Source: an uncultured Thermodesulfobacteriota bacterium (lineage in GTDB: Bacteria > Desulfobacterota > Zymogenia > Zymogenales > Zymogenaceae). Taken from it: a stretch of DNA of 46,673 nt. The notes under the pieces were generated by a model. The model was given only the letters and a program-made list of their open reading frames with translations. It was not told the DNA's origin and searched no databases. The DNA is taken from the NCBI GenBank assembly GCA_964506935.1, contig CAZDOD010000001.1, positions 1-46,673 of the forward strand, read 5' to 3'. How positions within the stretch are numbered: position 1 is the first letter of the stretch; every line of letters begins with the position of its first letter. Made by a program: the position numbers and the translations under genes. Below are positions 1 to 46,673 of this stretch, in pieces.

Positions 1-413
1 GCCCCGGCGAGCTCCACCATCGGTGGGTATGAGACCCAGTAGGGGGACGGGATTATCACCTCGTCTCCCGGCTCAAAGAATGCCATCGACAGGTTAAAAA
101 ACGAGTGTTTCCCGCCGCACGAGACTATGATCTCGGATGGTTTGTATTCGAGGCCGTTGTCTTCGCGAAACTTCTTGATTATGGCCCCCTTGAGTTCGGC
201 TATCCCCCCGACGTCCGTGTATTTTGTCTTCCCATCACGGATCGCCTTTATCCCCGACTCCTTGATCTCCTCCGGGGTATCAAAATCCGGCTCACCCGCC
301 CCGAAACCGATCACATCCTCCCCCTTCGCCTTAAGCTCTTTGGCCTTTGCGGAGATCGCAAGGGTGGCCGAGGGGGCAAGGTTTGTTACCCTCTGGGATA
401 ATTTCTTTTTCAT
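1..413 (-). CDS. aspC: Class I PLP-dependent aminotransferase (aspartate aminotransferase-like). Only the N-terminal part is present; the gene runs off the window start.
   Basis: Absent from the ORF track because there is no stop inside the window. My reverse-complement translation from the ATG at 413..411 gives MKKKLSQRVTNLAPSATLAISAKAKELKAKGEDVIGFGAGEPDFDTPEEIKESGIKAI..., the canonical AspAT N-terminus (GEPDFDTP). The plus ORFs 105..401 and 127..465 are its antisense shadows. Confidence 0.85.
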   Translation of the reverse strand, partial: MKKKLSQRVTNLAPSATLAISAKAKELKAKGEDVIGFGAGEPDFDTPEEIKESGIKAIRDGKTKYTDVGGIAELKGAIIKKFREDNGLEYKPSEIIVSCGGKHSFFNLSMAFFEPGDEVIIPSPYWVSYPPMVELAG

Positions 414-18165: not shown

Positions 18166-20284
18166 TATATACTCCTTTTTCTATCTTTGAGATCGTGATC
18201 GTAATCTCGATATTTTCCCTCGTCCCACCCCCGACCTTTATGGGAAAGGCCGGGATGATGGCGCTCCCCTGATAGGTGCGCTCCAGACCGCCCTCGGAGC
18301 GCGACGCCGTCTCCACCCCGAAGAATAAGAGTCTTGCGGGACGGGAGAGATCGATTTCGACCGAAAATCCGTCATATTCATTTACGAGAGAGAATTTCGA
18401 TACGTCATCGGCCTCGCCGCGCCCGGAGAGCTCAAACCTCTCTTTCCCAGGAAGGAGTAGATACCGCTTCGGATCTCTCCCGCCGAGGAGGGTGAGATTG
18501 AGTTCGGGGCAGAAATAGATCGCTCCCCCCTTTTCGGCCCTATCGGCAAGTGTGTATTCGACCTTAAGCTCCGGCCTCTCTGCGCATATAGTATACACTT
18601 TTTTTATCTCAAATGGAAATTTTCCATTGGCGCCGAGGACAGTACCATCCCTCAAAAGCGATATCGAGATATCGCTTTTATCTTTAGTCTTTTTTGAGAC
18701 ATCGTATGATCCGTCTGAGAAATCCCCGGCGTCGGGAAGCCTGTTATATATAATGTCATTTATATTCGGGGGCGATGTGAAGACCTTGTCTATAAAAGAA
18801 TATCGCGGATTTTTGTCATAGGTAAATAGGTCAAAGAGGCCTTCCTCTTTTATGACCATCCCCTCGTGGATGGATCTCGGCCCGTCTTGTGTATCCTCAT
18901 TGATATCATCCTTCGCCTCCTTGTGATATGCCTCGAATGTGCGGGACATGGTGTTGGTGAGGCAGAAGTCGAAATCCCTAAGATCGAAGTGAAATAGCGA
19001 TCCTCCACCCTTTGGCGATATGTAGGCCGAGAGGTGGGGCGTATTTATGAGTACCTCGTCAAATCCGTCGGCGTTGATGTCCAATATTTCGATTGAAGGC
19101 GGTTTTTTCCCATCGGCAATTTTTTCGGCCTTTGAGAGATTTTCGTATATTGCGTGTCGGAGGTAATTTAGATACAGTCCGCCGAATAGGCCGTGCCAGT
19201 AGGCACAGTTGCACTGTGCCTTAAAGAGGTATCTCTTCGCCTCGTCGGATGCGCCTTTGGTGAGGGCATTTACTTTTTTACTCACATAGAGCATCCTTTT
19301 GTGCATATTGTTGGATTCATGATATTTCGAGAGGAAGTTATTGAAAAAGCCTCCCCTGATAAATGGTCTTGCGTCATCCAACATCCCTTTTGCCTCTATC
19401 CTTTTGATGACATCTTTATATCTCAAGATAGCGTCCGGGGGGAGCGCCCATTCGGTCATCTCCTCGTAGCTTGCCGTGGGCAGATAAATCCTTCCAGTCG
19501 GGGGGAATCTATCGAGATATTCGGAGAAGGTCAAAAGATTGATCCAGTTCATGTTGTCCTCTATGGTCTTAAAAAAATCCTCCAGCCAGCCGTCTTTGAA
19601 GACCCATTCGTATGTCCCCGGCCATACCCCGAACTTTTCGCCGTCGTCGCCGTATACCACCCCGGCGCCGGGCCTCATATCGGAAACCTCTTTTAGCCTC
19701 GAAAGGGTCTCTTTCGGGTCGCGAAACGGGATGGTGTATCGGAGCACCTTGTCGATCGGGAAGACACACAGTCTGTGCCCCGAATATTCGGTGATATAGT
19801 AGCCGAAGAGGTCGATGTCCGAAAGCCCGGCGTAGCGGAAGTGAGTGTCGTCAAGCAGCGTGTATCTTATATTGAGGGGCTCGGTGATTTGGGGGAGCGT
19901 CGGCTCCCATACCCTCTCGGCAAGCCACATCCCCAATACCTCGGTCCCGAAGCGATTCTTTATGTGTTTTTTCATCATCTCTATCTGGCCGGCTGCGTCG
20001 ACCTTCGGGATGATCGAGATTATCGGTTCATAATAGGCACCGCCCAAAATCTCGACCTGACCCCGGGAGACTAGCTCACCAAGCGTGTCGAGATACTCGG
20101 GCCTGTTCTCCTCTATCCAGTCTAAGAGCGGGCCGGTGTTGTGCAGCGTTATTTTTATTTCGGGGTGTCTTTTGAGTGCTTCCAGAAACGGGCCGTAAGA
20201 GTGCTCGAAGGCGTCGGCGAAGACCCACCCAAAATTGCCCACCGGTTGGTGGTTGTGTATCCCGATCATGAGATTTATGCCCAT
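18155..20284 (-). CDS. GH57 4-alpha-glucanotransferase / alpha-amylase
   Basis: 'IGIHNHQPVGNFGWVF', 'GQVEILGG', 'WLAERVWEP', 'GDDGEKFGVWPGTYEWV' and 'KAQCNCAYWHGLFGG' are colinear with the Thermococcus litoralis-type GH57 enzyme as I recall it. The start is taken at ATG 20284 (MGINLMIGIHNHQP), 4 nt after the upstream stop. The 84 upstream codons of the track ORF overlap the previous gene. Confidence 0.85.
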   Translation of the reverse strand: MGINLMIGIHNHQPVGNFGWVFADAFEHSYGPFLEALKRHPEIKITLHNTGPLLDWIEENRPEYLDTLGELVSRGQVEILGGAYYEPIISIIPKVDAAGQIEMMKKHIKNRFGTEVLGMWLAERVWEPTLPQITEPLNIRYTLLDDTHFRYAGLSDIDLFGYYITEYSGHRLCVFPIDKVLRYTIPFRDPKETLSRLKEVSDMRPGAGVVYGDDGEKFGVWPGTYEWVFKDGWLEDFFKTIEDNMNWINLLTFSEYLDRFPPTGRIYLPTASYEEMTEWALPPDAILRYKDVIKRIEAKGMLDDARPFIRGGFFNNFLSKYHESNNMHKRMLYVSKKVNALTKGASDEAKRYLFKAQCNCAYWHGLFGGLYLNYLRHAIYENLSKAEKIADGKKPPSIEILDINADGFDEVLINTPHLSAYISPKGGGSLFHFDLRDFDFCLTNTMSRTFEAYHKEAKDDINEDTQDGPRSIHEGMVIKEEGLFDLFTYDKNPRYSFIDKVFTSPPNINDIIYNRLPDAGDFSDGSYDVSKKTKDKSDISISLLRDGTVLGANGKFPFEIKKVYTICAERPELKVEYTLADRAEKGGAIYFCPELNLTLLGGRDPKRYLLLPGKERFELSGRGEADDVSKFSLVNEYDGFSVEIDLSRPARLLFFGVETASRSEGGLERTYQGSAIIPAFPIKVGGGTRENIEITITISKIEKGVYNEG

Positions 20285-20288
20285 TTCT

Positions 20289-22469
20289 TTATGCGCTCCA
20301 GTTTTGAAGTTCAAAGTCACTGTCGGGGATCTCGGTCTCGAGGCTACCCCGATCGGGATAGCGGGAGATATTGACCCCATCCGATCTGATCTCGAAAAAG
20401 AATCTGAATGCCCGGCCCTCGCCAATGCCGAGCGCGGAGAAGGGGATGCCCAATTCTGTGATCTTTTCGATCCCGATATTCGTAAACTCGCCGATTTTTT
20501 CGTATCTCCCCTTCTCGGCAAATACGAGGAGGTCATATTTTTCCTCTCCCCTTTTTAGTGGGAAAGTTATCAAAAAGCCCCCAACTATATTGTCTTTTTT
20601 CAACTCTGTATCAATATAGAGGTGGACAAAGAGGCCCGAATCGAAAGCAGAAGACTCTTTGGGATCGAGCCTCACGTAGAAGCTATCTCGTGAAAAGCCG
20701 AAGTAGATACATTCGATCACTTTCGGCCCGCCGTGCATCGAGCCCTTGGAGTAGGAGATCTCATAATACCCGGCGTTCTCCCACTCGTAAAAGTCATCTA
20801 TCTTGCCGTTTGTGTCGGGTTCTATAAATCCTAACGGGGCTCTTGTCTCTGCGATCCTTTTATCCCCCTTTATCGGATGCGACAGGATCTCGAGCGGCTC
20901 CTTTTTGAGCGCGCGAAATACGCTTGAGAGGTGTTCCCTGAATAGAGAGTCGAACTCGTCGCCGACGTCGGTGTGAAATTCGTCGCCGAACCACCAGAAC
21001 CAGTCACTCCCCTCGGCGGCGTAGATTCCCTCCCACGCCTTTTTGAGATCCTCCTCCGAAGCCCCGGTCTCTTTTGCCTTGATCAAAAAATCCCTCGTAA
21101 GTTTAAGATAATCCCATGCACGGTTGTCCTCGGGGTGACCAATCCATATGCCGAAGTTGTGGTTTATCCACGATCCCGAATGGAGGTTGTCTATCGTGCG
21201 ATTCGGCGGGTGTTCTTTAATATAGTCTCCGATCGTCGCAGGGGCGATTCCGCTATCCCTATTGGACAGGGCCTCATAGACGCCCCTAAGGAAACCCTCA
21301 CCTCCATCGGGATACCCTTCCCATGGGTTTTCGCCGTCTAAGATCACGACGATAAGGGTGGGTTTGCCTTTGCGCCCCTTAGCGATCTCTCTTATCTGTC
21401 CGATGAAATCTGTGGCGGCCAATTTGGGATCGTTTTTGCCGTAAGAAAAGCTGATGAGGTCTGAAAGCCTTTTATCCCGAAAGACGATAGAGACTTCCCT
21501 CCCGTCGTGCACGGCCGTGTAGGGGAAGTAGATATCCTTCGGCCCTTTATCGGTGATATGGGAGTTCGCAAGGACGTCCTCGTCGGACGCTATCCACTCG
21601 ATCCCAAGATCGCAAAAGATCGGGATCACCTCGGGGGAGACCGATCCCTCCGAGGGCCACATCCCCCTTGGCCTGTGGCCTATTTTCTGGGCGAAAAATG
21701 ACAGTCCCATCTCGACCTGTGCGTGGGCGTCTTCGGGGTGGGCGAAGTCCGTCGGGAGCTTGGCATCCGGCATCGCCCTCTTTGCCGATTCCGTGTTTAT
21801 AACTAGGGGGAGGATAGGGTGATAATATGGACTCGTGGTAAGCTCGACGATCCCCTCATAGGAGGCCTTCTTATAAAGCGGGATAAGCCTTTTCATCACC
21901 TCAAAATGCGTATCGATGATAGAGGCCCTGTCGTCTTGTGAAAAATTCCTCCCCTTCTTAATAAGCTCATCAATGTGTGGGAAATCCCTTTTCACGAAAT
22001 ATCCGCACCAGCTGAGGTTGAAGAGGGCCTGTAGGTCTCCGATATCGGCGTCGGAGAAGATGGACGAAAACTTATCCATGTCGTCCTTTTTTAATATTTC
22101 CATCCTCTTTTCGAGGAGCTCGCGGTATCTCGGATGGGGATGGATTTGGGTGTCCCATCGGTTCATAAAGAAATTTTTTATGATAAAGGCCTTCTCGGAA
22201 GGGATGAGCTCCTTCGGGTCCTTCATCGTGAGATCAACAAATATATCTCTTGCCTCTCCCGAGGCGTACTCTTCGATCTGTTTTAACAAGGATGGGACGA
22301 GGTTTATCGTCATTTTCATCTGGGGATATTCGAGGGCGAGGCGCACCATGTCGTAGTATCCCTTTACCCCGTGGAGCCTCGTGAAGGGGAGGACATACTC
22401 CTCGGTCCGCGGATTCTTATAGATTGGTTGGTGCATGTGCCATAGGAAGGCCACACTGAGGTCACTCAA
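20289..22469 (-). CDS. GH57 glycoside hydrolase (amylopullulanase/alpha-amylase-like subfamily)
   Basis: 'FLWHMHQPIY', 'GMWPSEGSVS', 'ILDGENPWEG' and 'AEGSDWFWWFGDEF' are present. Confidence 0.8.
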   Translation of the reverse strand: MSDLSVAFLWHMHQPIYKNPRTEEYVLPFTRLHGVKGYYDMVRLALEYPQMKMTINLVPSLLKQIEEYASGEARDIFVDLTMKDPKELIPSEKAFIIKNFFMNRWDTQIHPHPRYRELLEKRMEILKKDDMDKFSSIFSDADIGDLQALFNLSWCGYFVKRDFPHIDELIKKGRNFSQDDRASIIDTHFEVMKRLIPLYKKASYEGIVELTTSPYYHPILPLVINTESAKRAMPDAKLPTDFAHPEDAHAQVEMGLSFFAQKIGHRPRGMWPSEGSVSPEVIPIFCDLGIEWIASDEDVLANSHITDKGPKDIYFPYTAVHDGREVSIVFRDKRLSDLISFSYGKNDPKLAATDFIGQIREIAKGRKGKPTLIVVILDGENPWEGYPDGGEGFLRGVYEALSNRDSGIAPATIGDYIKEHPPNRTIDNLHSGSWINHNFGIWIGHPEDNRAWDYLKLTRDFLIKAKETGASEEDLKKAWEGIYAAEGSDWFWWFGDEFHTDVGDEFDSLFREHLSSVFRALKKEPLEILSHPIKGDKRIAETRAPLGFIEPDTNGKIDDFYEWENAGYYEISYSKGSMHGGPKVIECIYFGFSRDSFYVRLDPKESSAFDSGLFVHLYIDTELKKDNIVGGFLITFPLKRGEEKYDLLVFAEKGRYEKIGEFTNIGIEKITELGIPFSALGIGEGRAFRFFFEIRSDGVNISRYPDRGSLETEIPDSDFELQNWSA

Positions 22470-36512: not shown

Positions 36513-37874
36513 TCACTTCCCCGGATCGATCTTGTAAGACCTCATCTTCTTGTGTAGGTGGCTCCTCTCTATCCCGAGGGTTTTTGCCGTCTGGGAGATG
36601 TTGAAATCGTTCTCTTTGAGCTTCTTTTCAATGAAGATGCGCTCAAATTTCTCCCTTGCCTCCTTTATGTCGTCAAGGCCGAAGAGGTCTTCTCCAATAG
36701 ACGGGGCAGTTTTGCTTTTTATATATGCGGGGATGTCTTCTGTTCCGATTACGCTGTCGGGGCACATGATTATGAGTCGCTCGACAATGTTTTTGAGCTC
36801 CCTTATATTCCCCGGCCAGCGATAGAGCTTGAGGACATCCATAGCCGAGTCATCGATTACCTTCTGTCTCCTTTTATCCTCCTTGGCCAATTCATCGATG
36901 AAGTGGCCGATGAGTAGCGGTATGTCTCCGGCCCTCTCCCTTAGGGGCGGTACGAGTAGCGGGATGACATTAAGGCGGAAGTATAGGTCTTCCCTGAAGC
37001 TCCCCGCCTCTATTCTTTTTAGGAGGTCCTGGTTCGTGGCGGCGATGACCCTGACATCGACTTTGATCGTTTTTGTCCCCCCAACCCGCACGAAGCTCTG
37101 CTCCTGGAGTATCCTTAATATTTTTGCCTGGGTCTTGAGGCTCATATCGCCGATTTCATCGAGAAATATCGTCCCACCGTCCGCGGCATCAAATTTCCCC
37201 GGTTTTTTTGTAGACGCTCCCGTGAACGCCCCCTTCTCGTGCCCGAAGAGCTCGCTCTCGATCAGCTCTTCCGGTATGGCTGCGCAGTTTACGTCAACGA
37301 AGGATCCATCGCTCCTCTTGCTCATGGCAAATAGGGTCCTCGCCACCAGCTCTTTGCCTGTGCCGTTCTCCCCGCTGATCAGGACGTAGCTGTCGTTGGG
37401 CGCCGCCCTCTTGATATCTTCCTTAAGGGCCTTTATGGGAGGGCTCTCGCCCACTATCTTGTAGCTTATATCGAAGCGCTGGCGGTAAAGTGAGACCTCC
37501 TTTTCGAGGCTCTTTTCCTTCAAGGCGTGGTCGATCGTGATAATAACCTTTTCCAAGGATAGCGGTTTCTCGATGAAATCATATGCCCCGAGTTTTGTCG
37601 CCTTTACGGCGGTCTCGATGTTTCCGTGTCCTGATATCATGATTACGGAGACATCCGGAAATTCCTCCCTGACCTTCGTCAGCACCTCCATCCCGTCCAT
37701 CTGGGGCATCCAGATATCCAAGAGCAACAGGTGAGGCCTCTCGGTCTCGACAAGCTCCAGCGCCTTTTCACCGTCTTCTGCCGTGAGGACGATATATCCC
37801 TCGTCGGTTAGAGCGCCGGAAAGGGATTTTCTGATGCTCTCCTCGTCGTCTACTATGAGAATCCGCTTTTTCAT
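36513..37874 (-). CDS. ntrX: Sigma-54-dependent response regulator (receiver, AAA+, Fis-type HTH), partner of the NtrY-like kinase
   Basis: 'ILIVDDE...LLLLDIWMP', Walker A 'GENGTGKE', 'GAFTGA' and the C-terminal HTH 'ISQTAKTLGIERSHLHKKM' are present. There is a 4-nt overlap with the kinase gene. Confidence 0.85.
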   Translation of the reverse strand: MKKRILIVDDEESIRKSLSGALTDEGYIVLTAEDGEKALELVETERPHLLLLDIWMPQMDGMEVLTKVREEFPDVSVIMISGHGNIETAVKATKLGAYDFIEKPLSLEKVIITIDHALKEKSLEKEVSLYRQRFDISYKIVGESPPIKALKEDIKRAAPNDSYVLISGENGTGKELVARTLFAMSKRSDGSFVDVNCAAIPEELIESELFGHEKGAFTGASTKKPGKFDAADGGTIFLDEIGDMSLKTQAKILRILQEQSFVRVGGTKTIKVDVRVIAATNQDLLKRIEAGSFREDLYFRLNVIPLLVPPLRERAGDIPLLIGHFIDELAKEDKRRQKVIDDSAMDVLKLYRWPGNIRELKNIVERLIIMCPDSVIGTEDIPAYIKSKTAPSIGEDLFGLDDIKEAREKFERIFIEKKLKENDFNISQTAKTLGIERSHLHKKMRSYKIDPGK

Positions 37875-40105
37875 AGAGTGCTCACTGGGAGTTCTATCGT
37901 AAACTTCGTGCCTTTTGGTTCATTATCGGAAACCCTTATGTAGCCGCGATGATCCGAGACGATGGTATTCACGATGGTAAGGCCGAGCCCCGTCCCCGTC
38001 TTTTTCGTGGAGTAATAGGGTTCAAAGAGGCGTTCCTTTACATCCGTTGGTATGCCGCGGCCGGTATCGGATATGACGAGATTTGCCGTATTCAAATCCT
38101 TCCTAAAGGAGGTCTCTATTTCTATTTCACCATCTCCGTCCACCGCCTCCACGGCATTCTCCAAGAGGTTTATAAGCGCCCTCTTTATCTGCTCCTTGTC
38201 GAGTTTCATCTTCGGGAGATTTTTGTCTTCAATGAACCGATAAGTAATGTCTTTGTGGGCGTCCTTATAGAGGGAAAGGGTCTCTTTTACGATTTTGTTG
38301 AGGTGGTTTAATACGGGCTTTGCCGCCGGGAGCCTTGCGAAGTGGGAAAACTCATTGACCAGAGTCTTCATCTCATCAACCTGTGTAATGATAGTCCTTG
38401 TGCACTCATCCAAGACCTCACCGTCATCTACCAGCTTATCGAGGTATTTTTTCCTTATCCGTTGGGCCGATAGCTGTATGGGTGTTAAGGGATTTTTGAT
38501 CTCGTGGGCTATTCGCCTCGCCACTTCACGCCAGGCGGCCATCCTCTGTGCCCTCATCGCCTCGGTTATATCGTCGAAGACCGCCACTATGCCAATGTAA
38601 TTTCCATCCTCGTCAACAAGGTTGTTGGCGTTCGCCATCAGGATGAGTATCCTGTCTTCGAGTGGGATCTCGACCTGACGCTGGATGTAGCCGTCCTTTG
38701 ATCTCTTTAGCTCTTCCATTAGACCAATGATTATATGGTAGTGTTTCGGCTTGAGGACCTCCGTGAATGGGCGGTTCATTACCTTCTCGGTCTTGATCCC
38801 GACCATCCTCTCGGCCGATCTATTGATTGTAGTGATGATTCCATTCTCATCAATAGATATTACACCTGCGGCGACATTTTTCAGGACTATCTCCATGTAC
38901 ATTCTTCTCTGCTCAAGCTCCAAGTTCGATCGGGATAGTTCGTTGTATGCCCTCTCGAGCCTCCTCGACTGGGTCTTGAGATCCTGGGTCATCTTGTTGA
39001 AGGAGTCGACGAGGGTCCCGACTTCGTCGCTGACGGAGACATCGACAAAGACTTCGAGATCACCGCCGGCGACTTTCCTTGTGCCTTCGGCAAGGAGTCC
39101 GATCGGACCAGTTATACCCTTGGCAAGGTAAAAACCGAGCCATGTTGCGGTGAAGACTACCAGTAGCGCGATGGCTGAAAGCGTGATGAGATAACTCACG
39201 ACGATGGATTCCTTAAAGAGCTTATTCCTCTTATATTCCTCGAGGAAGCGGCTTGTCTCAATCATCTTTGCCATCATCGACTTCGGCACAAAGTTGGCGG
39301 TCATCACCACGGCTTTCACCCCTTCCTCCGCGGTCAAGGGGTAAAGCGCCCATACTACATCTCCGTATCCTGTCGTCTGGATCGTCGATACCGGCTTTCC
39401 ATCCAGTGCCTCTTTGAAGAGGCTCGAATTCAGATGTTCGAGGGCCATCTTCGGGATATCTTCACTGACCGATGATGTGAGTTCCTCCATTTCCGGGGAG
39501 AATATCTTGATCAGCCCGAGACCACTTATATTTCTCTGCTTGTCGACATAGCTCTTGAGGTTTTTTCGATTCTCACTTTTGAGGAGACCTGAATTTGCCA
39601 CCTCATTGCCTATTTCTTTGGCGGCGCTTAGGGCCTTGTCTGTGGACAGGGTGTAGTAGGTCTGGGCTATATCCAGCGAGCCTTCGAGGGAGTTCTCGAC
39701 CTGAATGTTGAAAAACTTATCCATGCTGCCGGAGAAAAAAAGCATGGCGGCAAGAAACATTACGAGGGTGGGAAAGAGTGTGAGGCCGGCGAAACTCAAT
39801 ACGAGCTTCGTCCTGAGCTTCGCTCCTTCAACATTCTTCCTCCTCTCAAATATGAGCTTTACGAAGTTCCTGATGACGAGAAATATCACAAGTATCAGGA
39901 GGATGATATTGATATCTATCAGGGCGATCAGCAGGATGTTTTCGCCGACACCTATGTCGAGGTCCTTCTGGGTGAGGACGGTACCAAGGATTGTCAAGAC
40001 TACGATGACTACGGTGGCGACGACTATTATAAATCTCTCTCGTCGCCACTTAGCTTCCTCGGAGGGAGATCTCGGATGCTCCCTTTTTCTATCTATTCTT
40101 TTCAT
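37871..40105 (-). CDS. ntrY: NtrY-like membrane sensor histidine kinase (TM, HAMP, PAS, HisKA, HATPase)
   Basis: N-terminal helices, HAMP 'GDLEVFVDVSVSDEVGTLVDSFNKMTQDL', H-box 'AHEIKNPLTPIQLSAQRI' and 'GTGLGLTIVNTIV' are present. Confidence 0.8.
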   Translation of the reverse strand: MKRIDRKREHPRSPSEEAKWRRERFIIVVATVVIVVLTILGTVLTQKDLDIGVGENILLIALIDINIILLILVIFLVIRNFVKLIFERRKNVEGAKLRTKLVLSFAGLTLFPTLVMFLAAMLFFSGSMDKFFNIQVENSLEGSLDIAQTYYTLSTDKALSAAKEIGNEVANSGLLKSENRKNLKSYVDKQRNISGLGLIKIFSPEMEELTSSVSEDIPKMALEHLNSSLFKEALDGKPVSTIQTTGYGDVVWALYPLTAEEGVKAVVMTANFVPKSMMAKMIETSRFLEEYKRNKLFKESIVVSYLITLSAIALLVVFTATWLGFYLAKGITGPIGLLAEGTRKVAGGDLEVFVDVSVSDEVGTLVDSFNKMTQDLKTQSRRLERAYNELSRSNLELEQRRMYMEIVLKNVAAGVISIDENGIITTINRSAERMVGIKTEKVMNRPFTEVLKPKHYHIIIGLMEELKRSKDGYIQRQVEIPLEDRILILMANANNLVDEDGNYIGIVAVFDDITEAMRAQRMAAWREVARRIAHEIKNPLTPIQLSAQRIRKKYLDKLVDDGEVLDECTRTIITQVDEMKTLVNEFSHFARLPAAKPVLNHLNKIVKETLSLYKDAHKDITYRFIEDKNLPKMKLDKEQIKRALINLLENAVEAVDGDGEIEIETSFRKDLNTANLVISDTGRGIPTDVKERLFEPYYSTKKTGTGLGLTIVNTIVSDHRGYIRVSDNEPKGTKFTIELPVSTL

Positions 40106-40120
40106 CGTTAGAATCTAAAA

Positions 40121-40678
40121 TTAATATACAAATTCCTCCACATACCATTTGGTCTCGAACCTCCAGAGATTCACGAAAAATAGGACATAATGCAAAGACT
40201 CCGGTATATCAACCTTGTCCAGCTCTCCCTTTATCCCAAGGTGGTATGTCTCACCCTTTTCGAGCATATGAAGGGAGACCAGAGGATAGAATTTGACCCT
40301 TGCCATTATCCTCTTGGCATTCTCGAGATCCTTTACCACAACAGGTTTTTCCCCCTCCTCTTCCTTTATGATTGTGTACTCCTCCATGAGGGTATCATAT
40401 TTAATGGTATGCCTGAAGGTTTTGCTCACTACATTTGCGTCAAACCATATACCTTTTAGCTTCTTCATATTGACATTAAAAGTAAAGGTTGTGGGTATGC
40501 CGCTCTTTATCACTTCATCTATCTCGGCCGTGTAACATCCATTAATGTTAAAATAGATATAGACCGTGTTCTGGTATGTCGTGATAACGACATCCGTGAT
40601 CGAGGGCTCCTGGGCCTTGGCAGTGCTTGCCAAAAAGAGCACGAGAAGTATTGTTAAGACAATGTGTCGAGGTTTCAT
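40121..40678 (-). CDS. Secreted DUF4390-like protein (the family commonly precedes ntrY)
   Basis: Signal peptide 'MKPRHIVLTILLVLFLASTAKA' is present. Size and position upstream of ntrY fit. The family assignment is from memory of the synteny, not from a motif. Confidence 0.5.
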   Translation of the reverse strand: MKPRHIVLTILLVLFLASTAKAQEPSITDVVITTYQNTVYIYFNINGCYTAEIDEVIKSGIPTTFTFNVNMKKLKGIWFDANVVSKTFRHTIKYDTLMEEYTIIKEEEGEKPVVVKDLENAKRIMARVKFYPLVSLHMLEKGETYHLGIKGELDKVDIPESLHYVLFFVNLWRFETKWYVEEFVY

Positions 40679-41523
40679 AGCTCGACTATCTCATATGGTT
40701 TTTGTTCGGCCAGCTTAGAAACAAGTTTGTGGTTTAGGCGGTGTCCTGATTTATATGCCGTAAATTTTCCGACAATCGGCATGCCGAATAGTGCCAGATC
40801 CCCAATGGCGTCGAGGCACTTGTGTCTCACACATTCGTCGGGGAACCTGAGCCCCTCGGGATTGAGCACACCTTCGTCATCGATCACAACCGCGTTTTTT
40901 AAGGATCCGCCCTTGGCGAGGCCTTTTTTGCGCATTTCGTCGACATCCGCGAGTAGGCCGAATGTCCTGGCGGGCGCTATTTCGATTTCAAAGAAATCCG
41001 GGGTGAGCTCAAAGGCGAAGTGCTGTGTTCCTATATGGGGATTTTCGTAGACGATCGTATAGTCGATAAAAAGCCCTTTTTGTGCGGGTTCAAACTTCGC
41101 CCACGAGTCACCGGATTCTACCCTTATCTCCTGTGTGATCCTTGCAGCTAGTTTTTTCCCGCCGGCATCAACGATCCCATCTGAGTTTATCAGGTGGACA
41201 AAAGGGGCGGCACTTCCGTCGATTACGGGCACCTCCGGGCCGTTAATCTTGACCGTCACGTTATCTATGCCAAGGGCATATAACGTCGCCATGAGGTGCT
41301 CGACGGTCGAGACGCTCGCCTCACCCTCTATAATCGTTGTGGCGAGCACCGTATTCTTAACCCTCGAATGGTGGGCGGGTATCCTGATATCCCCGAGATC
41401 ACCACGTATAAATATGATCCCATCTCCCGCATCTGCGGGTAGGATGGTTATTTTGACTCTGCTCCCTGTATGTATCCCTACATCTTCTAAGGAAATCTCT
41501 TTTTTTATAGTCCTTTGGTGCAT
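40675..41523 (-). CDS. lpxC: UDP-3-O-acyl-N-acetylglucosamine deacetylase
   Basis: 'MHQRTIKKEISLEDVGIHTGSRVKITILPA', 'VSTVEHLMATL' and 'ECVRHKCLDAIGDLALFG' are present. Confidence 0.95.
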   Translation of the reverse strand: MHQRTIKKEISLEDVGIHTGSRVKITILPADAGDGIIFIRGDLGDIRIPAHHSRVKNTVLATTIIEGEASVSTVEHLMATLYALGIDNVTVKINGPEVPVIDGSAAPFVHLINSDGIVDAGGKKLAARITQEIRVESGDSWAKFEPAQKGLFIDYTIVYENPHIGTQHFAFELTPDFFEIEIAPARTFGLLADVDEMRKKGLAKGGSLKNAVVIDDEGVLNPEGLRFPDECVRHKCLDAIGDLALFGMPIVGKFTAYKSGHRLNHKLVSKLAEQKPYEIVEL

Positions 41524-41576: not shown

Positions 41577-42254
41577 TCAGGGCGTGATTCTAACCGGCCT
41601 TTCCGTAAAAGAATTTGCATGGATGGATATAAAGCGCTGGGGGTCTCGGTAATAGCCGCTGTCTTCCAAAAAGGGGATAAATGTTAAGGTGGGGTTTTTA
41701 AGGGTCAGATTTATTTTTGATACGAATTCTATCGATCCTTTTCTCGCCTCAGACAGGGTGGAGATGAAAATCACCTTTGCGTAATTTCTCGCCGATGCCT
41801 CACTGATAACGGGACCCCAGATATAGCCCCGCATAGGATCTGAGGGGGAAAGAAAGGGCTGATTGTGGGTGAACCTTTCGGACAGGTTCAACCTGTGCTG
41901 CTCGATCTTGAGGGGAGGGGCGGCCATGTATAGGGTAAGGGGCATTTTCTCTTTGGATTCTGTCGCCTCGCTAAAGGCGATGTGATGTGCGTAAGATTCA
42001 AGGTCGTCTATCTTCCCGAGGGGGGTCTCGGCCGAAATGTGAAATGTCCAGAACGGTATGTAATGGGGGTTTTTAACATCCCCCGAATAAAAGAGTACCC
42101 GCATCGGTTTTAATCTTCCGCCGCTCTCCTCCCAGAGATTAAGGCACATCCTGCACAAAAAAACCTTATCCTCCCTCCCGATGCCGACATCGCCACCGCA
42201 GCGGGGACATCTGAGCGGCAGGAGCGAAAGCGAAGGCCGATTAGCCAATGACAA
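41577..42254 (-). CDS. Zinc-ribbon-headed protein, soluble (paralog 3 of 3)
   Basis: 'CPRCGGDVGIGREDKVFLCRMC' (CxxC-N14-CxxC) is present. The start is TTG (42254 or 42248) behind GGAGGAGGAGG embedded in the upstream gene's last codons. Confidence 0.7.
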   Translation of the reverse strand: MSLANRPSLSLLPLRCPRCGGDVGIGREDKVFLCRMCLNLWEESGGRLKPMRVLFYSGDVKNPHYIPFWTFHISAETPLGKIDDLESYAHHIAFSEATESKEKMPLTLYMAAPPLKIEQHRLNLSERFTHNQPFLSPSDPMRGYIWGPVISEASARNYAKVIFISTLSEARKGSIEFVSKINLTLKNPTLTFIPFLEDSGYYRDPQRFISIHANSFTERPVRITP

Positions 42255-43251
42255 TTTCCTCCTCCTCCCATGGCCTGATAAAGAACCTGTTGAGTGATGA
42301 CAAAAATTGTTTTTTCTTTCCTAAAATCAGTGGGGCGGTTATTAGAAAAAGGAACACCAGCATGCTTATCATCGGAAACAGGGTCAAGAAAAAGGCAAAA
42401 ACAGATAGGATTAATATCCCCGGAACTATGTTTGTCCTTTTTCTCTTCGGGAGTCTCGCCTTGATGATGTTTCCCCTTATCCCGTCCACGACCACCCGTA
42501 TGGCTTCGCTGCCGTAGAGAAACCGTACGATCCAGAGGGGATAATAGATTTGGGAGAGATCTTCAGATATCTTGTTCGCCTCAAAATATGTCAGTGGAAA
42601 TCCCGTGGGCCTTGCCGATGAGGAAAGCGCCGCCCACGCCTCTCTTGAGGCCGCTCTCGGGTCTTTGACCGCATCGAAGACCATCCATTTCGGGCTTATC
42701 AGGGCTGGGTTGAAGATGTGAAGCTCTAGGACGCTAGACTGGGTGGAGACGCCGAACATTCCGAGCTCGGTGACGTTGAGGGCGGGGGTGAAATAGTTTA
42801 TCTCTTTAGAGTAGCATCCCGTTACCTTCTCCCTCGGAATCTTGGGAATGATGACCTCTCCATCTTCGGTCTGCATCCCGCCGGAAAGGACTTTTGCGGG
42901 TTTTTCGCCTATATACCACCCGCCCCCCTTTATCTTTACCTTGTAAAAGGGGACATAGACGAGTTTTGCATCGATGAGGCGGACGACCATTCTCGCCATC
43001 TCATCGGTCTCCTTTTTCTTTACGAGGTTTTTGACAACGCCGATTGCCTGAGGGCGCTCGATCATTTTGGGGATGTAGAAATTTTTCAGGCCACCGCTTC
43101 CCACCACGATGTGGGAGAGCCCACAGTGTTTGCAGCTTACCTTTGTGTATCCCTCGATAAAAGATATCCCGGAGCCGCACGAAGGGCATATGACCGCTAT
43201 CGTGAAGTTTCTGTTCTTCTTTCCCTGTTCGGTGATTTCTGTTTCTTTCAA
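42241..43251 (-). CDS. Zinc-ribbon-headed protein with two C-terminal TM helices (paralog 2 of 3)
   Basis: 'CPSCGSGISFIEGYTKVSCKHCG' (CxxC-N14-CxxC) and the C-terminal 'ILILSVFAFFLTLFPMISMLVFLFLITAPLIL' are present. TTG 43251 is the only start codon upstream of the ribbon. Confidence 0.7.
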   Translation of the reverse strand: MKETEITEQGKKNRNFTIAVICPSCGSGISFIEGYTKVSCKHCGLSHIVVGSGGLKNFYIPKMIERPQAIGVVKNLVKKKETDEMARMVVRLIDAKLVYVPFYKVKIKGGGWYIGEKPAKVLSGGMQTEDGEVIIPKIPREKVTGCYSKEINYFTPALNVTELGMFGVSTQSSVLELHIFNPALISPKWMVFDAVKDPRAASREAWAALSSSARPTGFPLTYFEANKISEDLSQIYYPLWIVRFLYGSEAIRVVVDGIRGNIIKARLPKRKRTNIVPGILILSVFAFFLTLFPMISMLVFLFLITAPLILGKKKQFLSSLNRFFIRPWEEEEIVIG

Positions 43252-43283
43252 GGTAAAGGAAATTCTATTGATTATCTAAAAAA

Positions 43284-44036
43284 TCAGTTATTTTTGCCCT
43301 TCTCGATTATCCGTCTTGATATCAGAATGAGTATGGCGGCCGCAGCCCCGATCGCAAAGCCTTTTATCAGAGGAGAAGAAAAGATGGTTCCGAGTGTGAT
43401 AAATATCCCGAAGGCGAAGGTGAAAAAGATAATCGGCCTGTAATCGACTTTATCCCCACCGACGGCGGGGAGGGTATCGGAATATATCCTCGTGGATTCC
43501 CCGGCAAGTAGTGCGTGATGGACGGCCCCATCGAGCCCAAAATCGATAAAGTAGATCGGGAGATAGACTAGCCATAGTCTCTCCACGTTCCTATCAGACT
43601 CCCCTTCATCTCTCGTCCATAGCGATGCCATCTCAGGCTCTATTGTCGGGGGACTTACCTTCTCACCCGGAAATATCCCCTCCTCGAAATATTTCAGGTC
43701 TCCGGCGGGTATCTTTACAGAAGATATCTCGGTGTGGATGGTCTTTGCGCCGGGCTGGGTCTTTGTGGTCCCGTCATGAAAGGTGATGTGCCAGACGGGA
43801 AAATATCTGAAGTCTATCTTTATGTCTTTCGGGGCGGATCTTATTTTGTTTTGCTTTAGCCTTGCCGAAAGGGCACCGGACGCCCAAATGTCGTTTCTGG
43901 CGTGCTCCAAAAAAAAGCATTGAAAGGTTCGATCTCGCTCGAGGATGAGGGAAGACCTACAGTGCGTGCATGTCAGAAACCTCTTGTCCTTGTCTATCTT
44001 TATCTTTGCCCCGCACTGGGAGCACGTCACTATCAT
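43284..44036 (-). CDS. Zinc-ribbon-headed protein with two C-terminal TM helices (paralog 1 of 3)
   Basis: 'MIVTCSQCGAKIKIDKDKRFLTCTHC' (CxxC-N14-CxxC) and the C-terminal 'IIFFTFAFGIFITLGTIF...FAIGAAAAILILI' are present. Confidence 0.75.
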   Translation of the reverse strand: MIVTCSQCGAKIKIDKDKRFLTCTHCRSSLILERDRTFQCFFLEHARNDIWASGALSARLKQNKIRSAPKDIKIDFRYFPVWHITFHDGTTKTQPGAKTIHTEISSVKIPAGDLKYFEEGIFPGEKVSPPTIEPEMASLWTRDEGESDRNVERLWLVYLPIYFIDFGLDGAVHHALLAGESTRIYSDTLPAVGGDKVDYRPIIFFTFAFGIFITLGTIFSSPLIKGFAIGAAAAILILISRRIIEKGKNN

Positions 44037-44077
44037 CTGTTCTCAAGACTCGGCATGTAAAGAAAAGGGTTTTTTGC

Positions 44078-45259
44078 CTACTTTTCGACCTTCTCGCCGC
44101 ACTCGGTGCAGAACTTTGTCCCGTCGGGGAGCTTGGCCCCGCACTTCGGGCATTTCACCTCCTCGCCCACCTTTTTCCCGCATACGGAGCAGAATTGGGC
44201 CTCGGGCGGGAGGTCCTTTCCGCAGTGCTGGCACTTGTTCACGACGACCATCTGAGTTCCGCAGCTCGGACAAAAGCGTGAGTTCAACGGCACCTCGGCA
44301 TGGCACTTTCGGCAGTTTACGTATCCCTGCTTCTTGATTTTTTCCGGCGACGCCTCACCTTCCATCATCGTTTTAAAAAGCATCCCCGGAACCATCATCC
44401 CGAGGCCCGCTCCAACGCCGACGCCCATTCCGGCGGCCGCCCCTGACGCCACCGTGCCTGGTGCTGCTCCCGTCCCGGCGCCCTCGGCCCCCGGCGCACC
44501 GGCGCCCGTGCTCAGGGCACCCATGGCCCTTGCCGCCTCGAACTTCAGAAACTGGTTCATGTCGCCGACGACGCCCATGCCTGTCTTTTCATCGATGACC
44601 TTCTGCACCTCGTCGGGCGGGGTAATCTCGTTGATAAAAAAATCAATTAGCTCTATTCCGTATTTATCGTAGTCTTCTTTGAGCCTGACTTTTGCAACCA
44701 CCGACAGCTCGTCATAGCTCTGCGGGAGGTCGAGGATGCTCTTCATGTGCTCTCCCAATAGGTCGTTGAGGCGAGAGACGATGACGTCCCTCAGATACCC
44801 CGATATACCCTCGGTCGTCATCATCCCTTTTGTGGCAACGAGGGTGTTGATGAAAAGCAAAGGCTGGGTGATCCTCATCGTGAAGTTCCCGTATGCCCTG
44901 AGCCTTACAAGCCCGAATTCGGAATCCCTGAAGGCGACGGGGTTCCTCGTGCCCCACTTCATGTCGGTGAATATCCTCATGTTTATAAATAGCACCTCAC
45001 ACCTGAAAGGGCTCTTAAACCCGAAGGGGAGCGACAGGACTTTTGTGAGTATCGGGAGGTTCATCGTGGTGAGTGTGTGTCTTCCTGGTCCGAAGACGTC
45101 GAGCCCTTTTCCGTCCCTGAAAAACACCGCCGTCTGGTTCTCCCTGACTACGAGCTGGGATCCCAGCTTGGTCTCCCCGGAGCCGGACTCCGGGACGCGG
45201 TGGACCATTTCGGTTTCATCCTCAAAGAAATATTCAATGACATCTAAAAACTCGGCCAT
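44078..45259 (-). CDS. SPFH/Band-7 protein of the YdjI/COG4260 type with a Gly/Ala-rich hydrophobic linker and three C-terminal zinc ribbons
   Basis: The N-terminus 'FLDVIEYFFEDETEMVHRVPESGSGETKLGSQLVVRENQTAVFFRDGK' is as in stomatin/prohibitin-family proteins with C-terminal Zn-ribbons. The tail carries 3x CxxC-N10-CxxCG. AAGGAGGA precedes the ATG. Confidence 0.8.
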   Translation of the reverse strand: MAEFLDVIEYFFEDETEMVHRVPESGSGETKLGSQLVVRENQTAVFFRDGKGLDVFGPGRHTLTTMNLPILTKVLSLPFGFKSPFRCEVLFINMRIFTDMKWGTRNPVAFRDSEFGLVRLRAYGNFTMRITQPLLFINTLVATKGMMTTEGISGYLRDVIVSRLNDLLGEHMKSILDLPQSYDELSVVAKVRLKEDYDKYGIELIDFFINEITPPDEVQKVIDEKTGMGVVGDMNQFLKFEAARAMGALSTGAGAPGAEGAGTGAAPGTVASGAAAGMGVGVGAGLGMMVPGMLFKTMMEGEASPEKIKKQGYVNCRKCHAEVPLNSRFCPSCGTQMVVVNKCQHCGKDLPPEAQFCSVCGKKVGEEVKCPKCGAKLPDGTKFCTECGEKVEK

Positions 45260-45277
45260 ATATTAAATCCTCCTTGT

Positions 45278-45832
45278 TTATACGCTTTCATCTTCCCCGC
45301 CCGCGCCCTTCGTCACGGCATACTTCCTGTCCTCAAAGACGCTCTCCATGTCCTCGGCGAAGGCGGAAAGGGCGGCTATCTCCCCCTTGGTCTTATCATC
45401 GTCGCCCAAAACATCCTTTATTCCCTTAAGTCTCTTATCCATCTCCTCGATCCTTCGCAGTATATCGAGGTCGTAGTTGTAGAGTGCCCTAAGCTCCTCA
45501 TCGAGGATCTTCACTCGGTCGAAATAACCGGAATATCCGTGGGAAGTGAACTTGATGGTATCCCTCAATTTGTCGAGCTTTCTCGATAATCTATCGAGCT
45601 TGTCGAGGCCCTCGAGGCTTTTCGACTCGGCCTTTTCCTCCATCACCTTCATGACGGCGCCCTTTAGGTGGTCGAATCGCTCGGCGATGTGCTCCCTGAT
45701 GATTTTGTCCCGCTCCCGGGCATTTTCCCTTTTTAAGTAGTGGCCGATCCCGGGAACATATTCCACGACCTCTTCGAGTGTCTTTGCCAGCCCGCCAGAT
45801 ATCCCCTCCCAGAATACACCCTTCTCAGGCAT
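45278..45832 (-). CDS. Coiled-coil protein of unknown family (184 aa)
   Basis: The sequence is charged and heptad-like throughout ('LDKLDRLSRKLDKLRDTI', 'LDILRRIEEMDKRLKGIKDV'). The start was moved to ATG 45832, 5 nt after GGAGGA. The track start at 45844 is a TTG. Confidence 0.7.
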   Translation of the reverse strand: MPEKGVFWEGISGGLAKTLEEVVEYVPGIGHYLKRENARERDKIIREHIAERFDHLKGAVMKVMEEKAESKSLEGLDKLDRLSRKLDKLRDTIKFTSHGYSGYFDRVKILDEELRALYNYDLDILRRIEEMDKRLKGIKDVLGDDDKTKGEIAALSAFAEDMESVFEDRKYAVTKGAGGEDESV

Positions 45833-45847
45833 GTTGTCCTCCAATAA

Positions 45848-46078
45848 TTATTTTCTAAACAGCATAAATATCAGGCTTATGATTACGCTGATAATTATCA
45901 TACTTACGATAGGAAAGTAAAATGTAAAATTCCCCTTTTTTACAAATATATCTCCGGGGAGCTTTCCGAAGAGGGGTATCTTGTCGTGAAAGGTGAGCAT
46001 TACGCCCAAAAACAAAACAACGATGCCGATGACGATTAGGGCCTTTCCTATCTCGTTTATCTCCCCGAAATCTCCCAT
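45848..46078 (-). CDS. DUF2905-family small membrane protein
   Basis: 'FGKLPGDIFVKKGNFTFYFPIVSMIIISVIISLIF' is the family-defining GKLPGDI...FYFP core. Confidence 0.85.
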   Translation of the reverse strand: MGDFGEINEIGKALIVIGIVVLFLGVMLTFHDKIPLFGKLPGDIFVKKGNFTFYFPIVSMIIISVIISLIFMLFRK

Positions 46079-46105: not shown

Positions 46106-46504
46106 TTAGATTCCCTCAAAGGCGACCCAGAAGGGGGAAAGCTCCCCCCTGTGGCTTATCGGGACGGCAACGGGGTGGCTGAGCGGGAGGTCCACTTCGG
46201 CGAAGAACGAGCTCCCGTCGTACATAAAGATATAGGCCCTGAACTCATATGGCACCCTCCTCCTCTCGAGGCCGATCACCAGGCTCTCGCCGGGCTCGAC
46301 CCTACCCATGAATATCTCATCGACGACGATGTTTAAGGGAACCGGGCCTGATGACGGCGGGGCGACGTCGGTGTCGTTGTAGACCCTGCCGAGGACCAGG
46401 TTATCGCCGTCCTGCGTGACCCCTACGAAGGGGTGGATTAAAAGGATTGCTAAAGTAACTATTGCAGTAAAGGATGTGATAAAGGCTTTTTTTGGTATCT
46501 TCAT
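46106..46504 (-). CDS. Small secreted/anchored hypothetical protein (132 aa)
   Basis: The start was moved to ATG 46504 (MKIPKKAFITSFTAIVTLAILLI...), preceded by AAGGAGA. The upstream part of the track ORF overlaps the queH 3' end in another frame. Confidence 0.6.
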   Translation of the reverse strand: MKIPKKAFITSFTAIVTLAILLIHPFVGVTQDGDNLVLGRVYNDTDVAPPSSGPVPLNIVVDEIFMGRVEPGESLVIGLERRRVPYEFRAYIFMYDGSSFFAEVDLPLSHPVAVPISHRGELSPFWVAFEGI

Positions 46505-46527
46505 CTTATCTCCTTTTTTTAAATTCG

Positions 46528-46673
46528 CTATTTTCCTAAAGACATCTTTTGGTCTCTTTGCTCTTTCTCGTAAAATTTTTTCAGGCTCGATATCTTTTTT
46601 TGGTATCTCTCGGCCTCGCTTATGATGCACCCGCAGTATTTCTGGCGGTAGATTCCGGCCTCGCGCGATACCC
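46528..46673 (-). CDS. queH: Epoxyqueuosine reductase QueH (DUF208), C-terminal 47 codons only
   Basis: My translation of the minus strand from the window end gives VSREAGIYRQKYCGCIISEAERYQKKISSLKKFYEKEQRDQKMSLGK*. 'YRQ.YCGC..S' is the conserved QueH C-terminal cluster motif as I recall it. Confidence 0.55.
   Translation of the reverse strand, partial: VSREAGIYRQKYCGCIISEAERYQKKISSLKKFYEKEQRDQKMSLGK

Follow-up and report, generated by a model that had tools for sequence, protein, structure and literature searches.

The gene cluster

The subject of this report is a cluster of five genes, here called A to E, on a contig of an uncultured Thermodesulfobacteriota bacterium of the family Zymogenaceae (GenBank assembly GCA_964506935.1, contig CAZDOD010000001.1). 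The whole stretch of DNA analysed, hereafter the window, comprises 46,673 nucleotides (nt). Calling of open reading frames (ORFs) places the five genes on the minus strand, packed into positions 41577-45832 in the order A-B-C-D-E. Their centre is B, an SPFH protein homologous to YdjI (also called SamI) of Bacillus subtilis. The best reading of the cluster is that of a widespread variant of the YdjGHI/SamGHI-type SPFH membrane-stress scaffold, with A as a new obligate partner. The genes are the following:

45278..45832, minus strand: gene A, 184 amino acids (aa), GGAGG-N5-ATG start at 45832
44078..45259, minus strand: gene B, 393 aa
43284..44036, minus strand: gene C, 250 aa
42241..43251, minus strand: gene D, 336 aa
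41577..42254, minus strand: gene E, 225 aa

A to E form one operon. The spacing is 18 nt between A and B, 41 nt between B and C and 32 nt between C and D; D and E overlap by 14 nt. A first-pass annotation, made from the letters of the window, had described five co-directional genes with gaps of 41 nt or less or with overlaps, and the coordinates confirm it. A terminator scan detected no terminator-like sites or hairpins between the genes, and nothing in a promoter and terminator scan exceeded the shuffled expectation. The juxtaposition of A to E is not a matter of chance, because the arrangement is kept across phyla (see below). The longest ORF of gene A has 188 aa, with a TTG start at 45844.

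Zinc ribbons are a prominent characteristic of the encoded proteins: there are six of them in the consecutive proteins B, C, D and E. By hydropathy, the C-termini of C and D each contain two adjacent hydrophobic segments, and A, B and E are without hydrophobic transmembrane (TM) segments. Six CxxC ribbons in four consecutive proteins and TM pairs at the ends of two of them had been claimed before; the CxxC positions and the hydropathy profiles agree with this.

The SPFH protein B

B matches the Pfam family Band_7_1 (PF13421) with an E-value of 3.7e-65 and 219.9 bits, the cut-off being 24, over profile positions 2-211 of 211. The Band_7_1 or YdjI-type group of SPFH proteins corresponds to COG4260. 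Three parts can be distinguished in B:

44570..45202, minus strand: SPFH (Band_7_1) domain, residues 20-230, by Pfam
44360..44524, minus strand: Gly/Ala/Met-rich low-complexity linker, about residues 246-300, by translation and alignment
44084..44320, minus strand: three tandem CxxC-N10-CxxC zinc ribbons, residues 314-392, by Pfam DZR and Zn_Ribbon_1

The CxxC pairs of the ribbons are found at residues 316/330, 343/357 and 370/384, and the matches to DZR (1.4e-24) and Zn_Ribbon_1 (4.6e-23) are clear-cut. B had thus been correctly addressed as an SPFH/Band-7 protein of 393 aa with three zinc ribbons at its C-terminus.

B is homologous to YdjI. A hidden Markov model (HMM) of the B family recognises the B. 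subtilis-type YdjI at 2.1e-39. The layout of the latter has been described as an SPFH domain, a stretch of low complexity and a zinc finger (PMC8581546). Both are soluble Band_7_1 SPFH proteins with a low-complexity linker and C-terminal zinc ribbons, of which B has three and YdjI one. No hydrophobic 19-mer in B scores above 1.6, i.e., the protein has no membrane anchor of its own. Past residue 230 there are only about 25 residues before the Gly/Ala linker begins, and B therefore has no long helical wall segment. Searches of the PDB with B returned zinc-ribbon matches only, and a solved structure of the Band_7_1 branch was not detectable by sequence. The idea that the number of ribbons in B (two or three) tracks the number of ribbon partners was discarded, as C-D-E triples occur with both versions.

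The zinc-ribbon proteins C, D and E

C, D and E are distant paralogs within the YdjG/SamG family, and the triplication of the ribbon partner that had been proposed for this locus is real. Each of them has one CxxC-N14-CxxC ribbon (C 5/23, D 22/40, E 16/34). In C, the ribbon (residues 3-28) is followed by a cytoplasmic alpha/beta region and a TM hairpin at about residues 200-245. D starts with a ribbon at residues 20-45, continues with two helix-plus-beta-sheet modules and has its TM hairpin at residues 275-309 (about 272-313 by hydropathy), as seen also in an AlphaFold2 (AF2) model with a predicted local distance difference test (pLDDT) score of 66. E has its ribbon at residues 14-39, no TM segment, and is soluble. 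The hairpins of C and D are flanked on both sides by stretches rich in K and R; the N-terminal domains and the tails should therefore be cytoplasmic.

The kinship of the three is seen in profile comparisons by hhalign, which align C with D at a probability of 93% (E-value 3e-7, 201 columns) and C with E at 92.6% over the ribbon and the YxPFW strand. Their membership in the YdjG family is best documented for D: the D-family HMM matches YdjG at 1.2e-22, and hhalign yields 98.6% with an E-value of 7.6e-16 over 257 columns. If jackhmmer is seeded with YdjG, it retrieves from the window D at 4.3e-39 and C at 6.9e-26. The D HMM matches E at 1.3e-5, and hhalign gives 72% for E against YdjG. E is the weakest member of the family, because its support is indirect only.

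The family is large. An exhaustive HMMER search with the D profile yielded 1150 representative clusters at E<=1e-3, of which 237 remained at E<=1e-10. Their members mostly have 320-380 aa and an N-terminal ribbon, and a subset of 450-520 aa adds a second, internal ribbon. In 65 diverse members no Pfam domain beyond ribbon fragments was found, and there is no Pfam model for the family. The central domain of YdjG-family proteins has been described as a YpeB/NTF2-like fold (PMC11237479). Foldseek with the D model against the PDB gave nothing significant; the C-domain of YpeB (5boi) appeared at rank 16 with an E-value of 0.75.

At 42241-42270 of the window (minus strand), the run GGAGGAGGAGG codes for the tail PWEEEEIVIG at the C-terminus of D and doubles as Shine-Dalgarno sequence of E. 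Part of the apparent conservation of this tail may therefore reflect translational coupling instead of protein function. One of the matches to the D profile, P0164, has SYTHLDVYKRQ near both ends. This peptide is a translated Nextera transposase mosaic-end adaptor, and the source contig is therefore contaminated with adaptor or chimeric.

Conservation of the neighbourhood

An alignment of B was searched against one genome per GTDB species. This census yielded 547 confirmed relatives; the counts given here refer to the best 80 of them (42-80% identity), and the genes in their loci were assigned with local HMMs. The 80 relatives come from at least 12 phyla. They belong to Thermodesulfobacteriota, Methylomirabilota/NC10, Nitrospirota, Binatia, Acidobacteriota, Gemmatimonadota, Vulcanimicrobiota, Zixiibacteriota, Fermentibacteria, Actinomycetota, Chloroflexota, Caldisericales, a Clostridia metagenome-assembled genome (MAG) and others. 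In 67 of the 80 loci an A-like gene is located upstream of B on the same strand. The gap between the two does not exceed 150 nt in 50 of the 63 loci in which both genes are complete, and overlap of start and stop is frequent. In many phyla this SPFH subfamily has A as its conserved neighbour in the gene order. The first-pass annotation had allowed for the five genes not being conserved together outside this genome; the census finds the module conserved beyond it.

Homology searches by word index, in which A, D and the profile of the A family served as queries, had a narrower reach. They found close relatives, those of A and D all being from one deltaproteobacterial (Thermodesulfobacteriota) lineage, plus a single distant match, P0067. 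This is a homolog of A with 19% identity, for which the A-B pairing holds as well: the next gene encodes a Band_7_1 protein, again with three ribbons, and the one after it a protein beginning with a zinc ribbon.

YdjG-like genes stand alongside in 35 of the 80 loci and come in three forms. The triple of C (two TM segments), D (two TM segments) and soluble E was met in 11 loci, Vulcanimicrobiota and Gemmatimonadota included, and a partial set in three more. As the triple, known from at least three named phyla, recurs in these two, the triplication must be ancient and not a local event. In another 14 loci the YdjG-like partner is one fused protein, about 460-550 aa long, that has two ribbons and lacks TM segments. 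Such proteins, which consist of a D-like half and an E-like C-terminal half, are seen in L015-L026, L034, L038 and L054 (e.g., L018:8196-9635). With such a partner the whole module would be soluble in those lineages. In seven Actinomycetota loci, finally, YdjG-like genes are placed upstream of A. De novo clustering of all other neighbours disclosed no further broadly conserved gene.

Some lineages have partners of their own. Two Chloroflexota loci, L055 and L075, show a genuine PspA_IM30 gene (7e-47) inserted between A and B. The same position is taken by a zinc-ribbon/TM/Toastrack (DUF4097) gene in eight loci of Acidobacteriota or Clostridia. A DUF2207 membrane protein accompanies B in nine loci, mostly of Actinomycetota and mostly directly after B, in L086 upstream of A. 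Also in nine loci, of Actinomycetota and Chloroflexota, a small protein with two TM segments that ends in a YdjG-type ribbon is encoded beside A-B. The occurrence of this ribbon on different membrane anchors beside the same pair suggests that it is a docking element. The Psp/Lia envelope-stress network is known to include both PspA and Toastrack proteins (PMC11237479, PMC9239133). Their insertion into the A-B pair therefore ties the module by genomic context to a Psp/Lia-type network, although both are missing from the present window.

The A homologs of the two loci with an inserted PspA (L055:5228-6178 and L075:271-1287) have an extra C-terminal domain of about 150 aa, for which no Pfam match was found. 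Another companion consisting of ribbons alone occurs in Pyrinomonadaceae, where a protein of two zinc ribbons, about 107-128 aa in length, is encoded shortly downstream of B:

L045:7131-7454: two-ribbon protein downstream of B
L059:1192-1578: two-ribbon protein downstream of B
L072:2016-2339: two-ribbon protein downstream of B
L088:2934-3266: two-ribbon protein downstream of B

The variation of partner genes around A-B among phyla could also be expected of an anti-phage defence or conflict system, in which an SPFH protein would work with zinc-ribbon sensors. Conflict systems with SPFH/Band-7 and zinc-ribbon domains do exist (cited in PMC11237479). The search results, however, hardly favour it. 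A, C, D and E have no significant match in Pfam, PADLOC or PHROG. In PADLOC, A matches ZorA weakly and below threshold (E 5e-4, in the coiled-coil region), C and D match by their zinc ribbon alone (E 0.002-0.01), and otherwise none of the five proteins has a match; the PHROG matches are confined to the ribbon or weak. The module is free of nuclease, protease, NTPase (nucleoside triphosphatase) and toxin domains. Housekeeping genes surround it, and the synteny with queH, DUF2905, lpxC and ntrYX is stable within the lineage. A distant Band_7_1 gene was seen on only five viral contigs, in none of the five with an A-like gene. We consider a defence function very improbable.

The helical protein A

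A is not PspA, and its family is uncharacterised. The AF2 model (pLDDT 71) is all-helical, with four long helices of 20-32 residues that form two hairpins, and residues 99-109 are a disordered loop (pLDDT below 50). A had been introduced as a coiled-coil protein of 184 aa; the length is right, but the model shows two helical hairpins instead of one long coiled coil.

The only database family that matches A is NCBIfam NF047596, the 'LIMLP_15305 family protein' of Leptospira, with an E-value of 2e-11 over profile positions 26-172 of 175. With a score of 44 bits, far under the equivalog cut-off of 210 bits, A is a homolog of this family without being an equivalog member. The same family is matched by 30 of 30 diverse relatives of A at E<=1e-3 (best 1.4e-18), all of them under the cut-off. 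The only mention of LIMLP_15305 met with in the literature is as a locus tag in a table of small RNAs (PMC7567364), and no paper describing the A-B pairing or the module was found among those on COG4260, LIMLP_15305 or SPFH proteins with zinc ribbons.

An alignment of 73 distinct sequences reveals two conserved motifs:

45704..45757, minus strand: motif 1 of A, consensus IPGxxGYxxRExRRxxDK, here VPGIGHYLKRENARERDK, residues 26-43
45518..45553, minus strand: motif 2 of A, consensus RFAxYGYxGxFD, here KFTSHGYSGYFD, residues 94-105

In motif 1, P27 and D42 are invariant and G28, Y32, E36 and R39 nearly so. In motif 2, G99 is invariant and A96, Y100, G102 and F104 are nearly invariant; this motif is situated in the low-confidence loop between helices 2 and 3.

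The simplest explanation of the locus would be an ordinary Psp operon, with A as a diverged PspA/Vipp1 and the ribbon proteins as plain orthologs of YdjG and YdjH. B indeed matches YdjI, D matches YdjG, and A is helical and of PspA-like size. Yet A and all 30 diverse family members lack any Pfam match, PF04012 and Snf7 included. The A family aligns with the B. subtilis-type PspA at an hhalign probability of 0.6% and with YdjH at 0.2%. A PDB profile search with the A family to E<=10 yielded no PspA, Vipp1 or ESCRT-III; PDB sequence and profile searches with A and B returned only designed helical bundles or zinc-ribbon matches, and no solved structure is related to A by sequence. Foldseek of the A model against the PDB gave nothing significant either; the top ESCRT-III-type chain, CdvB, came at rank 35 with an E-value of 2.3 and a TM-score of 0.27. 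The helices of A with their 20-32 residues and two hairpins are also unlike the long alpha1-alpha2 hairpin of ESCRT-III proteins, as far as an AF2 model of moderate confidence can tell. Moreover, A and true PspA coexist as separate genes in L055 and L075, and a homolog of YdjH, which is a TPM protein, is missing. For these reasons, A not being PspA, no TPM protein being present and A coexisting with PspA elsewhere, the ordinary Psp operon is largely refuted, and we regard it as the least probable of all explanations. That the locus has no recognisable PspA, as had been stated beforehand, is supported by all these searches and by jackhmmer seeded with PspA, which found nothing in the 46.7-kb window. 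The related claim that an unrelated protein sits in the place of PspA needs amendment. A is unrelated to PspA, but it does not simply replace it, since true PspA lies between A and B in the two Chloroflexota loci.

Relation to YdjGHI and other SPFH systems

As reference served a B. subtilis-type pspA-ydjGHI locus from a metagenome (L092), located via the published ydjG primer sequence (PMC8581546). It encodes a PspA-like PspA, a YdjG with a TFIIB-type ribbon and no other Pfam domain, a YdjH that matches TPM_phosphatase (PF04536) at 3.1e-23, and a YdjI composed of Band_7_1 and ribbon.

The two systems have much in common. Apart from the likeness of B and YdjI, C and D share with YdjG the zinc ribbon at the beginning, the pair of YxPFW-type alpha/beta modules and the TM anchor at the C-terminus. 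Both operons are headed by a small helical protein, and all components would act on the cytoplasmic side of the membrane.

The differences are equally evident. Directly upstream of the SPFH gene the module has the unrelated helical A, the Bacillus operon has PspA at its head. The module has no YdjH/TPM protein: none of A to E matches PF04536, and jackhmmer seeded with YdjH found nothing in the window or in 90 loci. Where Bacillus has a single YdjG with two ribbons, the module has three YdjG paralogs with one ribbon each. C and D have a TM hairpin and E has no TM segment, whereas YdjG has one C-terminal hydrophobic segment. The gene order is A-B-C-D-E here and pspA-G-H-I in Bacillus. Finally, the host is a diderm, unlike Bacillus, as had been assumed and as the lpxC gene immediately downstream of the module attests. 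With C, D and E as members of the YdjG family, the module has counterparts of two of the four Bacillus components, YdjI and YdjG, and none of the other two, PspA and YdjH. The first-pass annotation had called the module similar to, but not identical with, pspA-ydjGHI. This was right in so far as PspA and YdjH are missing; the ribbon proteins, however, are homologs of YdjG and not unrelated look-alikes.

Other SPFH proteins too are encoded in operons with dedicated partners, e.g., in HflK/C-FtsH, stomatin/flotillin-NfeD and QmcA-YbbJ. By analogy with such cage systems, and in keeping with the discussion in bioRxiv 10.64898/2026.02.06.704340, an oligomeric scaffold that delimits a membrane patch may be expected of the present module. 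Unlike the SPFH proteins of these systems, B itself carries neither a TM segment nor a hairpin and has no long coiled-coil wall segment, and the module has no NfeD or protease partner. As to the Psp/Lia network, the window encodes no Toastrack (DUF4097) protein of the kind of LiaG and YvlB, no PspB/C and no LiaF-like proteins.

In B. subtilis, YdjG and YdjH are needed for the membrane foci of YdjI, and YdjI is needed for the recruitment of PspA (PMC8581546). A 2026 preprint proposes that SamI restrains signalling by SamGH and that PspA is dispensable for this phenotype (bioRxiv 10.64898/2026.02.06.704340). Transferred to the module, C and D would be SamGH-type stress sensors with a transcriptional output, and B together with A would do no more than restrain them. 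The small TM protein with a terminal YdjG-type ribbon beside A-B in Actinomycetota and Chloroflexota would fit such a signalling device. The B. subtilis phenotype depends, however, on the TPM protein SamH, which is missing here; C, D and E have no recognisable output domain, and in 14 loci the fused partner has no TM segment at all. A purely signalling role thus appears rather unlikely, if by no means far-fetched. It overlaps with the scaffold considered in the following and is not fully exclusive of it.

A possible function

We are moderately inclined to believe that A to E make up a complex at the cytoplasmic face of the inner membrane, arranged around the soluble YdjI/SamI-type SPFH protein B, with a role in envelope stress; this view leans on the analogy with B. 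subtilis. The statements on homology and conservation are much firmer than this functional reading.

The complex might be put together as follows. C and D would insert into the membrane via their TM hairpins, with zinc ribbon, alpha/beta modules and tail facing the cytoplasm, as in the B. subtilis analogy. Like YdjG and YdjH, which recruit YdjI, they would dock an oligomer of B at the membrane. The soluble paralog E could serve as an adaptor or cap. A would bind B directly, probably through its two invariant loop motifs, and the long helices missing from B past the SPFH domain may be contributed by A in trans. Alternatively, B could gather A at stressed patches of the membrane, and A would act there as an effector or regulator. 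The output would be the sensing of membrane integrity or fluidity, or membrane repair, and not catalysis.

Several observations weigh against this view. The census covers only the 80 closest relatives of B and, in consequence, overstates the generality of the A-B pair across all Band_7_1 proteins. Eight loci have B but no detectable A nearby, although one of them, L032, offers only 853 nt upstream; five of the eight are from Gemmatimonadota. The A-less loci with adequate flank, mainly of Gemmatimonadota, retain B-C-D-E. Anchoring by the ribbon proteins is not universal, because the fused partner of 14 loci has no TM segment. The AF2 models of A and D are of moderate confidence (pLDDT 71 and 66), and A offers no fold-based clue to its function, as the Foldseek matches are not significant.

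A more daring idea may be mentioned, to which we assign a modest chance at best. The A family could be a new, phylogenetically broad structural subunit of Band_7_1 assemblies that provides the helical wall in trans, or else a PspA-independent membrane-stabilising effector. Together with the YdjG-family ribbon anchors it would then constitute an unrecognised envelope-maintenance machine, present in at least 12 phyla and acting upstream of PspA or parallel to it.

Bacterial SPFH proteins and the Psp response are active fields of research, and the YdjI/SamI branch was known only from B. subtilis. Here it turns out to be widespread in diderm and monoderm phyla. Its usual partner is an uncharacterised helical protein with two invariant loop motifs and not PspA, and in some phyla the genes of PspA and Toastrack proteins are inserted into this very pair. 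The YdjG family, with more than 1000 sequence clusters and no Pfam model, comprises TM-anchored, soluble and fused forms. These comparisons provide a framework, and testable predictions, concerning the way in which soluble SPFH proteins get to the membrane and the things they organise at it; three protein families deserve curated models.

Flanking genes and the remainder of the window

Downstream of E, on the same strand (36513-41523, minus strand), lie lpxC and the genes of three more proteins: one with DUF4390, an NtrY-like histidine kinase of the PAS/HAMP kind and a sigma-54 regulator of the NtrX type. lpxC starts 53 nt past E. The gaps in this stretch do not exceed 53 nt, and three of the five junctions overlap by 4 nt. 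The order queH, small gene, DUF2905, A-B-C-D-E, lpxC, DUF4390, NtrY-like kinase, NtrX is kept in close relatives.

This neighbourhood invites a link to the biogenesis of lipopolysaccharide (LPS) and the outer membrane. In E. coli, FtsH degrades LpxC, and HflK/C modulates FtsH. The module might accordingly be the scaffold or regulator of an LpxC-controlling protease, in the manner of HflK/C with FtsH, and the position of lpxC and of the genes behind it in all close relatives would suit this idea. The linkage of lpxC, DUF4390 and kinase genes is, however, limited to the lineage of the window (8-13 of 90 loci). The module also occurs in predominantly monoderm, LPS-less phyla (Actinomycetota, Chloroflexota, the Clostridia MAG), and there is no protease gene in linkage with it. 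We therefore judge a role connected with lpxC to be quite improbable; lpxC, DUF4390 and NtrYX were likewise rejected as members of the module, their linkage being lineage-specific only.

On the other side, a small DUF2905 membrane protein of 76 aa (5.6e-23) is encoded at 45848-46078 of the window (minus strand) and ends 15 nt upstream of the start of A. Its position beside A is kept in most close relatives, and it may therefore be co-transcribed with A; in other phyla it is not found next to A-B. Further upstream, an ORF of 174 aa (46106-46630, minus strand) has one hydrophobic N-terminal segment and no match in Pfam or NCBIfam.

The remainder of the window (1-37874), viewed as a whole, is of the housekeeping type. 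Among its products are four GH57-family proteins, starch synthase, 4-alpha-glucanotransferase and two proteins of histidine biosynthesis, further a penicillin amidase, a DegT-type aminotransferase, a Sir2 protein and a DNA methylase. Between the ORFs 18155-20536 and 20289-22469 there is an overlap of 248 nt; for the second of them this suggests a TTG start called too far upstream.

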